Source of the DNA: a virus
Taxonomy: Duplodnaviria > Heunggongvirae > Uroviricota > Caudoviricetes
Length of the DNA: 21,109 nucleotides
Strand: one strand, 5' to 3'
Virus record (IMG/VR): IMGVR_UViG_2695420876_000008
The notes beneath the pieces were generated by a model, which was given only the letters and a program-made list of their open reading frames with translations, made no database searches and was not told the origin of the DNA. Positions 10,814 to 13,942 of this stretch are shown here, in pieces. Positions within the stretch are counted from its first letter, which is position 1. Every line of letters begins with the position of its first letter. The translations under genes and the position numbers were made by a program.

Positions 10814-11563
10814 ATGAATATTGTAACCATCAACAACAAACAGTTTCCGGTAATCGAATATCGCGGTCAGCGTGTTGTGACATTTGCAATAATTGATGAC
10901 GTCCACCAGCGCCCGGAAGGTACCGCCCGTGCTGCGTTTAACCGCAACCGTTCTCACTTTATCGAAGGGGTGGATTTTCTTGAAATGACTGCGGACGTAA
11001 TACGTACGGAGTCACTTTCTGATGCCTTTGCCGCGCGAACTGCCAAAGGGATCATTCTTTTCGAGTCTGGTTACCTGATGTTGACGAAGCCTTTTAACGA
11101 TGCTCTTGCATGGCAGGTTCAGCGCGAACTGGTTAACAGCTATTTCCGAACTCACGCGCCGCTGACGGAAATGGAGATGATCGCTGCAATGGCCGCCGAT
11201 GCCGTTCGCCAGCAGAAGCGCCTGAGTCATGTTGAAGAGAAGATCGAAACGGTCACCAAAGCTGTGGAGAACATCAAACGCGGCACAATGCGCACCGGAT
11301 ATGTCGGTTACCGCCAGGTGGTAGCCAAAAGCGGAATGAGTGACGCCAAGTGTCGGAATCTGGTCAACGCCTACCACATCCCTACCGACACGCACGAATT
11401 TATGACTCCGGACGGTCTGTTGTCTCGCAGGGCTGTCGTCGAGCTTGAGACATTTATGGCGGCGTTCCACCAAATGATGTCAGAGGCTGAACCACGCGGC
11501 ACACGCTGGTATCACCCGAAGATGGGGCTTTTTCAGGTAATCGGATGGGAGGATAAAGCATGA
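10814..11563 (+). CDS. ORF6N-domain phage regulatory protein (antirepressor-like N-terminus)
   Basis: N-terminus FPVIEYRGQRVVTFAIIDDVHQRPEGTARAAFNRNRSHFIEGVDFLEMT fits the ORF6N pattern as recalled; ATG 10814 with SD TGGAGA. Confidence 0.7.
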   Translation: MNIVTINNKQFPVIEYRGQRVVTFAIIDDVHQRPEGTARAAFNRNRSHFIEGVDFLEMTADVIRTESLSDAFAARTAKGIILFESGYLMLTKPFNDALAWQVQRELVNSYFRTHAPLTEMEMIAAMAADAVRQQKRLSHVEEKIETVTKAVENIKRGTMRTGYVGYRQVVAKSGMSDAKCRNLVNAYHIPTDTHEFMTPDGLLSRRAVVELETFMAAFHQMMSEAEPRGTRWYHPKMGLFQVIGWEDKA

Positions 11564-12128
11564 TCATCCAGTCAAAACTTATTCGCGCCGCTCTGGTGTG
11601 CGCTGCTAAAAACGACGTTCGTTATTACCTGAACGGTCTTCACATCACGCCAAAACATATTGAGGCAACCAATGGTTTCGTAGCACTGCGCATGACTCAC
11701 GGCATCCGGACGAAGAAAAACATCATTGTCCAGTTCGAAGGTGGCGTCCCGGCCAAAGCCGAAACGACAGAGCTGATTTTTAGTAAAGAGCCGATCCTGT
11801 TCATCGCGACCAGTTTCAGCGCCGGCTGTCCATTACCGGCATTAAATTGGTGGACGGTTGTTTTCCGGATTTGGAACGCATCATTCCGAAAAAATTTGAC
11901 CTCTGTACACACCCGGTGATCCAGGCGGGTTACCTGAGTTATCCAGAGAAGATGTTTGGTCGTGAGCGTAAATTTATTCCCGTCCAGTTACGTTCCTCCG
12001 GTGACGGGCAAGCGGTCAGAATTCAGTTTGATTCCATCATCAACTCAATGTATGGCAATCCTGAATTTGTTGTGATGCCTTGTCGTGATCATGGCGATTT
12101 CAATGTGGCTCAGGAGCATCCGGAATGA
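11560..12128 (+). pseudogene. Sliding-clamp (DnaN domain II-III)-like mini-clamp gene, split by a -1 frame break around 11817-11835
   Basis: Frame A (11560-11919) contains DVRYYLNG and ATNGFVALRM; frame B (open from 11787 to 12128) contains IKLVDGCFPDLERIIPK and ends EFVVMPCRD. These align in order with E. coli DnaN segments DVRYYLNGM, ATDGHRLAV, KLVDGRFPDYRRVLPK and AAYVVMPMRL (from memory). Strong SD GGGAGG at the start. Confidence 0.6.
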
Positions 12129-12163
12129 AAATCGAATACCAGGACGCCGCAGGAGGTGAATCA

Positions 12164-12247
12164 ATGAGCTGGCCTGATGCAATCGTAACTCTGGGGGTGG
12201 TATTCGCAGTAGCGTTTGTTGTGTTCTCAATTTGTCGATGGGGATAA
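12164..12247 (+). CDS. Candidate small hydrophobic peptide (27 aa, single TM)
   Basis: ATG 12164 with SD AGGAGG 8 nt upstream; MSWPDAIVTLGVVFAVAFVVFSICRWG; below the ORF-track size cutoff. Confidence 0.3.
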   Translation: MSWPDAIVTLGVVFAVAFVVFSICRWG

Positions 12248-12251
12248 CCAC

Positions 12252-12494
12252 ATGTTCGCTTTGATTCAACGCGGTCAGATATACACGGACAGAGCCGGAT
12301 ACCCCGTGGTGATTACTCGCATCACTGAGCACTCAGTGTTCTTTCGACGGATGGACGGACGATCCGGGCGGGTACGCATTGGTGAGTTAAACTGCCTGTT
12401 CGAACATATTGACCACCAGGAGTACCGCAAAATTCTCGCGGACACTGAGCAGGAAAAGCACCTGAAAAAATTACGAGCCATAAAAAGGAAGTAA
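12252..12494 (+). CDS. Hypothetical protein (80 aa)
   Basis: ATG 12252 (MFALIQRGQIYTDRAGYPVV...) inside the longer track ORF; SD GGGGA upstream. Confidence 0.5.
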   Translation: MFALIQRGQIYTDRAGYPVVITRITEHSVFFRRMDGRSGRVRIGELNCLFEHIDHQEYRKILADTEQEKHLKKLRAIKRK

Positions 12495-12652: not shown

Positions 12653-12862
12653 ATGGGGCTGGATTGCGTGCCTATATCAACCTACTGCCGCGACGCGGGA
12701 GAAACGGTTGATGCCGTTAACAAACGGATACAAAGAGGAATATGGAAAGAAGGGGTTCATGTATTAAAAGTCGACGGAGTTAAAGAACGCTGGGTCGACT
12801 TAATAGAGGTTTCAAAATGGGCAAGAAAGAACAAGGATTATTATCTCTGCCAAGAGGAGTAA
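12653..12862 (+). CDS. Excisionase-like protein (Xis candidate)
   Basis: Small ORF immediately upstream of and overlapping the integrase start (classic xis-int arrangement); SD GAGGTGA upstream. Confidence 0.5.
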   Translation: MGLDCVPISTYCRDAGETVDAVNKRIQRGIWKEGVHVLKVDGVKERWVDLIEVSKWARKNKDYYLCQEE

Positions 12863-13942
12863 CTATTCGTAAGCATAAAACTGCTTCAACACTAGTTATC
12901 ACTTTCACATATAAAGGGGTTCTTTGCAGGGAGCCCCTGTCTCGGCTTGAGGCAAATACACGTGGTATTAAATATGCTGAGCGCCTGCTAGGGGAGATAC
13001 AAAATCAGATCGCCAGCGGAACGTTTGAATATGCGAAATATTTCCCCAGTTCCAAAAAACTGGAGTTATTCGGTGTAGTAAAGAAAACCAAAAATATTAA
13101 GTCCTATCTTGATGAATACCTGAAAATTTGCATGAACCGCAATCTGTCGCCGTCAACCATTGGCGGTTACGAAAAATGTCTATCAGCACTATCAGAACTA
13201 CATAAACTACATGTAACAGAATTGACGCCTGCGGTACTAAAAAATTGGATAGCCAGCCGAAAAACTAAGCTGAAAACAATCAGGAATAACCTGTCATTTC
13301 TGCGCAGCGCCATTGATGAGGCTGTAACTGATGGCCTGTTGACTATTAACCCGGTAACTCTTGTCAGCGCCAGCCGGTATCACGTGGTCGACAGGTGCCA
13401 TATATCAGCACTGCAAGTATCAGGAATGGCAGAATCTGTTCCGCTTCGCCTTCAATACAGGGCTACGCAGCTCTGAGCTATGCGCATTACGTTGGACCGA
13501 TATCGACTTTATAGGTAATACAGCGCACATACAGGCGGCCAGTGTCGTAGGGGTACTTAAAGGCACCAAGACAAAAGCCGGTACCCGTAAGGTGGAGCTG
13601 AACAGTGAGGCGCTGGCGGCCCTGCAGGCGCAGAAGCAATACACCTTTATGAAAAGTGAGTTCATATTCAGCGATCCGAAAACGGGAGATCCCTGGACGA
13701 ACGCCGACGCTATCCGTAAAAAAGCATGGGTGCCGACCCTGAAAAAAGCTGGTGTGCGCTACCGTAACCCGTACCAGACGCGCCACACATTCGCCACCAG
13801 ACACATTAGCCAGGGTGTAAACCTTTTCTGGCTTGCCGGGCAGATGGGGCATAAGGGGCCGGAAATGCTGTTCCGCAATTACGGTAAATACCTGGCTGAA
13901 TACGACGGGAAAACCGCAATGGAATCTGGAATGAAGAAGTGA
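12817..13942 (+). pseudogene. Lambda-family tyrosine integrase, split by a +1 frame break around 13365-13400
   Basis: ORF 12817-13476 has an arm-binding-type N-terminus (LPRGVTIRKHKTASTLVITFTYKGVLCREPL) and core-binding region; ORF 13361-13942 in the +1 frame has the catalytic domain (FAFNTGLRSSELCALRWTDIDF, YQTRHTFATRH, GHKGPEMLFRNYGKYL). Confidence 0.8.

Follow-up and report, generated by a model that had tools for sequence, protein, structure and literature searches.

A frameshifted DnaN-derived gene in a lambdoid prophage and the inferred pocket-only architecture of its family of short phage clamp-like proteins

The bacterial β sliding clamp (DnaN; TIGR00663; PF00712/PF02767/PF02768) is a 366-aa protein made up of three tandem domains. 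In Escherichia coli, a shorter, UV-inducible product named β* is reportedly made from an internal start in dnaN and consists of domains II and III; β* has a complete domain III and has been proposed to form rings. The herpesvirus proteins UL42, UL44 and BMRF1 are monomeric processivity factors that combine two full domains with a basic DNA-binding face, and each is paired with a cognate viral polymerase. The host clamp network is itself the target of Gp168 of phage Twort (PMC8565349) and, as cited in PMC7556043, of the SocB toxin. Public annotation also holds a family of short β-clamp-like phage proteins (phrog_3007, WP_000586690.1, Serratia phage Eta gp10), with homologues in Salmonella, Escherichia, Klebsiella and Vibrio siphophages; a search of the literature found no paper characterising a short member of this family or a phage mini-clamp.

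The window analysed here (the whole stretch of DNA, 21,109 nt) bears a further member of this short family, but one in which the reading frame is interrupted. Positions 11560–12128 are a pseudogene, a copy with a 1-nt deletion of a conserved accessory gene that belongs to the early-left operon of lambdoid prophages. We hold with considerable confidence the reading as a whole, namely that this is the pseudogene of a DnaN-derived gene whose intact product would be a module carrying the partner-binding pocket of the clamp. The intact protein (hereafter, the mini-clamp) shares with DnaN the motifs RYYLNG, ATDGH/ATNGH, DGRFPDxxRVxP, IGFNxxYL and VVMPMR, together with a homologous fold and, at the level of sequence, many residues of the putative pocket; it differs in having 189 aa, in the absence of domain I, of the first half of domain III and, with these, of both faces of the dimer interface, and in being encoded in a prophage accessory operon. 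Like β*, it starts near the same point of the clamp (about β 132–136) and has no domain I, but it is the product of a separate, diverged prophage gene and lacks half of domain III and the interface. Unlike UL42, UL44 and BMRF1, it is accompanied by no annotated phage polymerase, and its conservation is centred on the peptide pocket. It has no sequence or fold relationship with Gp168 or SocB; should it act as a decoy, it would share with them the pathway attacked, clamp-dependent host replication, but while those proteins bind the clamp itself, the mini-clamp would imitate the pocket of the clamp and bind its clients. Within the short family, the members found in virulent and Eta-like phages lie in replication modules, whereas the subgroup of the window consists of early-left accessory genes placed next to antirepressor-like genes.

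The features of the locus are collected in Table 1. Two overlapping ORFs are present on the + strand, 11560..11919 (119 aa) and 11847..12128 (93 aa); the latter lies in a frame that is open from 11787, which makes the overlap between the frames 133 nt long (11787–11919). The 5′ part of the pseudogene encodes the initial portion of the domain II-like fold, with the RYYL and ATNG motifs in it; the 3′ part encodes what remains of domain II, along with the DGxFPDxxRxIP linker motif, the latter half of domain III and, as the C-terminal strand, VVMPCR. The upstream gene was assigned from its match to Pfam ORF6N (E 1.6e-12), from PHROG anti-repressor families and from the annotation of two relatives (L001 and L003). 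Its stop codon overlaps the ATG of the clamp-like gene in an ATGA at 11560–11563, which points to translational coupling of the clamp-like gene to the upstream one; a further ATGA joins the stop of the clamp-like gene to the ATG of the 40-aa ORF that follows. Independent expression of the 3′ part appears unlikely, since no Shine-Dalgarno sequence is found ahead of either of the in-frame codons TTG 11847 and GTG 11850.

Table 1. Position of the features of the mini-clamp locus in the window
Feature	Position	Strand	Basis
ORF6N-type antirepressor-like gene, upstream (249 aa per relatives' annotation)	10814..11563	+	
Shine-Dalgarno sequence GGGAGGA	11547..11553	+	Read from the sequence; 6 nt 5′ of ATG 11560
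Pseudogene, 5′ part (codons 1–79, native frame)	11560..11796	+	Alignment with intact 570-nt orthologues and translation
1-nt deletion site	11796..11797	+	Three-way DNA alignment, gap at column 238
Out-of-frame tail of the 119-aa ORF (40 non-native residues, then TGA)	11797..11919	+	
Pseudogene, 3′ part (codons 81–189 and stop, −1 frame)	11799..12128	+	Alignment and translation
40-aa ORF with hydrophobic C-terminus, downstream	12125..12247	+	Equals a 123-nt hypothetical CDS in relatives

When the pseudogene was aligned with two 570-nt copies of the gene, a single gap was observed: the G of codon 80 (GCT, Ala) is absent between 11796 and 11797, directly 3′ of the GATC at 11793–11796. An earlier note on this DNA, made from its letters alone, had proposed that the two frames together encode one protein, joined by a −1 shift around 11817–11835. 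That they form one gene was borne out by this alignment to single-ORF orthologues, as was the direction of the shift, but the true site lies about 20–40 nt further upstream. Restoring the missing G gives a 189-aa ORF in which P145S is the sole difference from the allele of MS20657. As the window stands, translation from ATG 11560 runs through 79 native and 40 out-of-frame residues and stops at 11919, and because the 3′ part lacks its own ribosome-binding site, a functional product would not be expected from this allele. A 569-nt sequence 100% identical to that of the window is present in E. coli E110019, where RefSeq names it 'hypothetical protein, frameshifted'. Intact copies figure in RefSeq as 'beta clamp domain-containing protein' (WP_000586690.1), a product name that applies to a gene 99% identical to the window copy, while older annotation runs give 'hypothetical protein'. 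The window copy is a young pseudogene and, having been lost in the lineage of the window, the gene is dispensable for maintenance of the prophage. The family has already been named in public annotation and the locus has already been annotated as a frameshifted pseudogene, and neither is new; what is new lies only at the level of the family, in the pocket-only architecture that we infer for it.

Among 5,426 complete E. coli genomes searched by megablast, the gene is present in 60. The 570-nt form occurs in 55 of these, and the four copies that were translated were all intact, so related prophages do contain the single-ORF version that the earlier note had envisaged. The remaining forms include one of 567 nt (n = 1, a divergent orthologue), one of 571 nt (n = 1) and 5′-truncated matches (n = 2), and the 569-nt form of the window was found only in E110019. 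In public assemblies, the exact 119-aa truncated product was recovered from 288 index blocks and 203 contigs, the latter from many independent NCBI, ENA and Logan assemblies; two intact alleles were recovered from at least 1000 and from 900 contigs, respectively. The chromosomal contexts of the truncated allele number at least two and differ in their integrases, and a variant of it (P0055) has the same deletion plus one further substitution. Two other alleles are frameshifted separately: P0041 at an A6 run near codon 111 (25 contigs, mostly E. coli and Shigella) and P0061 at an A-run near codon 53. The corresponding A-runs of the window lie at 11712–11722 and 11888–11894. The existence of a common frameshift allele and at least two others indicates that the gene is easily lost, which could mean that its function is marginal; its recurrent inactivation could be due to neutral decay or to a cost in lysogens.

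Other explanations of the frame break were weighed. A sequencing or assembly error, with the gene intact in the organism, would fit the position of the missing base directly 3′ of a GATC (Dam) site, a kind of site that some long-read base-callers mis-call, and also the disruption of the integrase gene in the same window. Such an artefact is nevertheless very unlikely, because the identical 569-nt sequence is found in the finished chromosome of E110019, the exact truncated product recurs on the 203 contigs from independent assemblies, and P0055 has the same deletion on a slightly different background. The break is not inherent to the gene, nor is it probably a misread base; it is a pseudogenising deletion of 1 nt. 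Programmed −1 ribosomal frameshifting of the type known for dnaX and the IS3 transposases, which would join the frames into a full-length protein, is scarcely credible. The second frame is indeed −1 relative to the first, with the long overlap described above, and an A_AAA_AAT heptamer, the only one that looks slippery, is present in the first frame at 11888–11894. However, the orthologues are a single uninterrupted ORF in at least 55 complete genomes, the two-frame layout not being conserved, and the lesion itself (CCG ATC CTG) is not slippery, with no X_XXY_YYZ sequence within 11790–11800; on these two grounds a programmed-frameshift gene was rejected. In addition, a slip at 11888–11894, 90 nt downstream, would swap ∼31 conserved residues, including DGxFPD, for out-of-frame sequence. 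The idea that the two ORFs are unrelated genes resembling DnaN by chance can be discounted almost entirely: each fragment alone gives only sub-threshold Pfam or NCBIfam matches, as this idea would have it, but the intact single-ORF orthologues, the match of the family profile to E. coli β and the clamp fold already refute it.

The mini-clamp gene of the window and of its relatives belongs to the leftward early operon of a lambdoid prophage, in which the genes run LexA-like repressor, HTH protein, small ORFs, ParE-like protein, SPFH/Band-7 lipoprotein, ORF6N antirepressor-like protein, mini-clamp, small ORF, DUF4222 protein, excisionase and integrase. The replication genes, on the other arm, encode a DEAD/DEAH helicase and a toprim/zinc-ribbon primase-like protein, and no DNA polymerase is annotated in the prophage stretches covered. 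In Serratia phage Eta, the family gene is located between a ParB-like gene and a helicase, adjoining a primase, and the whole genome contains no annotated polymerase. A search of the anti-phage defence models of PADLOC-DB gave no match at E ≤ 0.01 for the intact protein or for its two upstream neighbours. The upstream, coupled proteins have an N-terminal domain that varies by prophage (ORF6N, Rha or BRO-N), and at ∼14 of 27 enterobacterial loci they share a C-terminal tail, RW[YQS]HP[KEA][MF]G.F (11500–11563 in the window; other tail-bearing loci include L006, L019, L020, L022–L025, L027, L029, L031, L033 and L036). Considered as a clamp-binding motif, this tail is loosely similar to the delta-type AMSLF, but the residue at position 4, where such a motif is anchored, can be L, I, S, R or G, which makes it a poor motif; a physical link between the tail-bearing protein and the mini-clamp is possible.

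Several other lesions were observed in this prophage and its relatives. Compared with E. coli E110019 and GCA_053191725.1, to which it is otherwise 99.9% identical, the integrase gene of the window has lost 53 bp and is thereby split into two ORFs (12817..13476 and 13361..13942, junction at 13394/13395). The lost segment is bounded by a 4-bp CAGT microhomology, and the prophage copy in the window probably cannot excise. In the E110019 prophage (locus L003), the Q antiterminator is annotated as 'frameshifted' (L003 5053–5449) and a TerB-family gene beside it has an internal stop (L003 4475–4837). Because the window is 99.9% identical to E110019 over the Q region, it probably carries the Q lesion too (∼1763–2159, − strand), a further sign of a defective prophage. 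In E110019, an IS3-family element is also inserted 3′ of the small ORF (L003 15593–16902); the window has no such insertion (12298–12300). Past 15474, the window runs into a second integrase and a response-regulator/histidine-kinase-like pair, as do L012–L016, while E110019 continues at that point into an autotransporter pseudogene instead; the differing flanks indicate that the same prophage allele sits in differently rearranged surroundings.

The intact 189-aa protein derives from the bacterial β sliding clamp. Used as a single sequence against the PDB, it aligned with E. coli β at E 0.002–0.003 (residues 5–114 on β 136–253); it matched TIGR00663 at E 5e-4 with 19.1 bits, below the family cut-off of 137.65, and PF02767 with 17.4 bits, below the cut-off of 27, while PF02768 was matched weakly (E 0.043), by one distant member, at positions 69–120 of the 121-position domain III model. 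A profile built from 16 family members aligned with E. coli β, the sequence of which had been checked against PDB chains, at E 1.7e-13 to 4.5e-13. Taken together, the matches are confined to β 136–250 and 315–366, in line with the earlier proposal that the protein is prophage-encoded, derived from DnaN and devoid of domain I. An AlphaFold2 model, computed for a member sharing 82% identity with the intact E. coli protein, reaches a pLDDT of 88 and a pTM of 0.84; its structural alignment with β, at ∼18% identity, reveals a homologous clamp fold, and BFVD contains many phage models of 180–250 aa with a TM of 0.7–0.8 to the predicted mini-clamp model.

The C-terminal part of the protein had been placed by the first HMMER alignment on β 254–289, in the first half of domain III, a placement overturned when the family C-terminal profile gave 25.4 bits on β 308–366 versus 5.1 bits on β 250–310. 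The consensus 'eIGFNaeYL..K...v.l.f.g....v.ie.....n..liiMPmRl' aligns with 'EIGFNVSYVLDVLNALK..NVRMMLTDSVSSVQIE..AAYVVMPMRL' of β, and placement on the second half of domain III also agrees with the position of the weak PF02768 match. The protein accordingly consists of domain II (β ∼132–250) fused to the second β-α-β-β-β half of domain III (β ∼315–366) with nothing in between; domain I and β ∼251–314 (the first half of domain III) have no counterpart. The earlier description of a two-domain, β*-like clamp did not survive this result. At the dimer interface of β, I78/F106 of domain I packs on I272/L273, and ion pairs connect K74/R96/R103 to E298–E304 (PMC11139829). All of these residues fall in segments without a counterpart in the mini-clamp, and since both faces of the interface are absent, the intact protein would be unable to form the ring. 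For the same reason, poisoning of the host clamp through mixed rings, another suggestion of the earlier note, is structurally unlikely. Mimicry of the host clamp retains some plausibility if taken more narrowly, the partner-binding pocket being the part that the family conserves. In the predicted model, a loop (residues 60–68) takes the place of the second of the helices by which domain II should line the channel.

The intact gene is a true gene under purifying selection, pairwise Nei-Gojobori estimates giving dN/dS values of 0.04–0.22 among intact E. coli, Salmonella and Klebsiella orthologues, with dS up to >1. A word-indexed search found ∼60 close relatives of 185–188 aa across the Enterobacterales, and when 1.84 billion cluster representatives were searched exhaustively with HMMER, 1,200 matched at E ≤ 1e-10, nearly all of the best 150 being 170–210 aa long. 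An intact orthologue matched phrog_3007 at E 5.8e-65 (residues 1–179 on positions 3–188 of the 190-position profile), and tblastn detected members of ∼30% identity in 253 phage records; in 130 of these, the match spans at least 80% of the length. The labels of these distant members include 'DNA polymerase III beta subunit', 'putative beta-clamp protein', 'DNA polymerase' and 'RusA-like Holliday junction resolvase'. The last of these is the label of phrog_3007, which has been copied into many phage records (for example, IME207, Segz_1, KFS-SE2 and pYD38-A); since sequence and fold point to a β-clamp derivative, it appears to be a propagated mis-annotation.

The residues of β that make up the pocket for clamp-binding motifs are listed in a 2024 review (PMC11139829), and their equivalents were located, with the shared motifs as anchors, in 80 divergent representatives of the family (mean identity 23%). 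The equivalent of M362 was retained in all 80, those of R152, G174 and P242 in 79 each, that of L155 in 77, that of P363 in 75, that of T172 in 72 and those of H175, R365 and Y323 in 69 each; at the equivalent of N320, N was found in 53 and Q in a further 12. When the 188 positions are ranked by conservation in these representatives, the top 20 include ten of the 17 pocket equivalents (hypergeometric p 2e-7), although the same residues are the best conserved of DnaN in general and the representatives were collected with a profile containing these motifs, which means that ascertainment or fold constraint accounts for some of the enrichment. Both the R176 and the L177 equivalents vary among the 80 representatives. 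At the equivalent of H175, a residue that in β bridges the two pocket subsites, F is found in the window (codon 40, 11677–11679), MS20657 and A34, S in JNEC-KY202, and H in the Salmonella, Klebsiella and G3/10 orthologues. As judged from these comparisons, the intact protein is a clamp fragment without the ring interface, the most conserved surface of which matches the partner-binding pocket and not the channel.

As to function, we tentatively propose that the intact protein is a soluble pocket module, acting as a decoy or as an adaptor. It would not form rings but would keep the cleft for clamp-binding motifs (QL[SD]LF-type). As a decoy, it would sequester host proteins that bear such motifs, i.e. 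the clamp-loader subunit delta, Pol III alpha, Hda, Pol II/IV/V and MutS/MutL; as an adaptor, it would bring host Pol III to the helicase/primase replisome of the phage itself. Delta binds monomeric β ∼50-fold tighter than the dimer (PMC11139829), a preference that makes a monomeric pocket a credible competitor. Against a pocket module stand the varying equivalents of R176 and L177 and the F or S found in E. coli alleles at the equivalent of H175; its structure is a ligand-free prediction, and the fact that in some phages the family gene adjoins the helicase fits a replication accessory role as well as a decoy. A true phage processivity factor, working as a novel ring (for example, four 1.5-domain subunits giving 12 β-α-β-β-β units) or by direct DNA binding as does herpesvirus UL42, would explain the clamp fold, the frequent annotation as 'DNA polymerase III beta subunit' and the position of the Serratia phage Eta copy between a ParB-like gene and a helicase; that three half-domain units times four equal the 12 of the clamp ring is arithmetic, not evidence. 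This alternative is nonetheless improbable, considering that both faces of the known ring interface are deleted, that the predicted model shows the 60–68 loop in place of the second inner helix of domain II, that the phages examined encode no polymerase of their own, and that the family conserves the partner pocket and not the channel.

The locus in the window is itself of little weight, being one more decayed gene in a decaying prophage. The family is of more interest: it is very large (>1,000 clusters at 50% identity), is under purifying selection and is found mainly in phages without a DNA polymerase of their own, and its architecture keeps just the part of the clamp into which every clamp client docks. 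It is conceivable, if rather doubtful, that the family constitutes an unrecognised class of phage effectors, a ring-incompetent 'clamp-pocket' protein made from DnaN by the loss of domain I and the first half of domain III. Such proteins would capture delta, Pol III alpha, Hda, the translesion polymerases and MutS/L by their clamp-binding motifs, and host replication and repair would be shut down or re-routed, or host Pol III tethered to the helicase-primase of the phage. If this were true, the recurrent frameshift alleles, that of the window among them, would reflect the cost of leaky expression in lysogens. The site that receives clamp-binding motifs has been pursued as an antibiotic target and, were the pocket of these proteins functional, they would be natural, genetically encoded competitors for the motif. 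A survey of viral replication genes found that PolIII-beta homologues sometimes occur without a polymerase, and asked what the stand-alone ones do (PMC4889955); an effector class of this kind, if real, would answer that question for polymerase-less phages.
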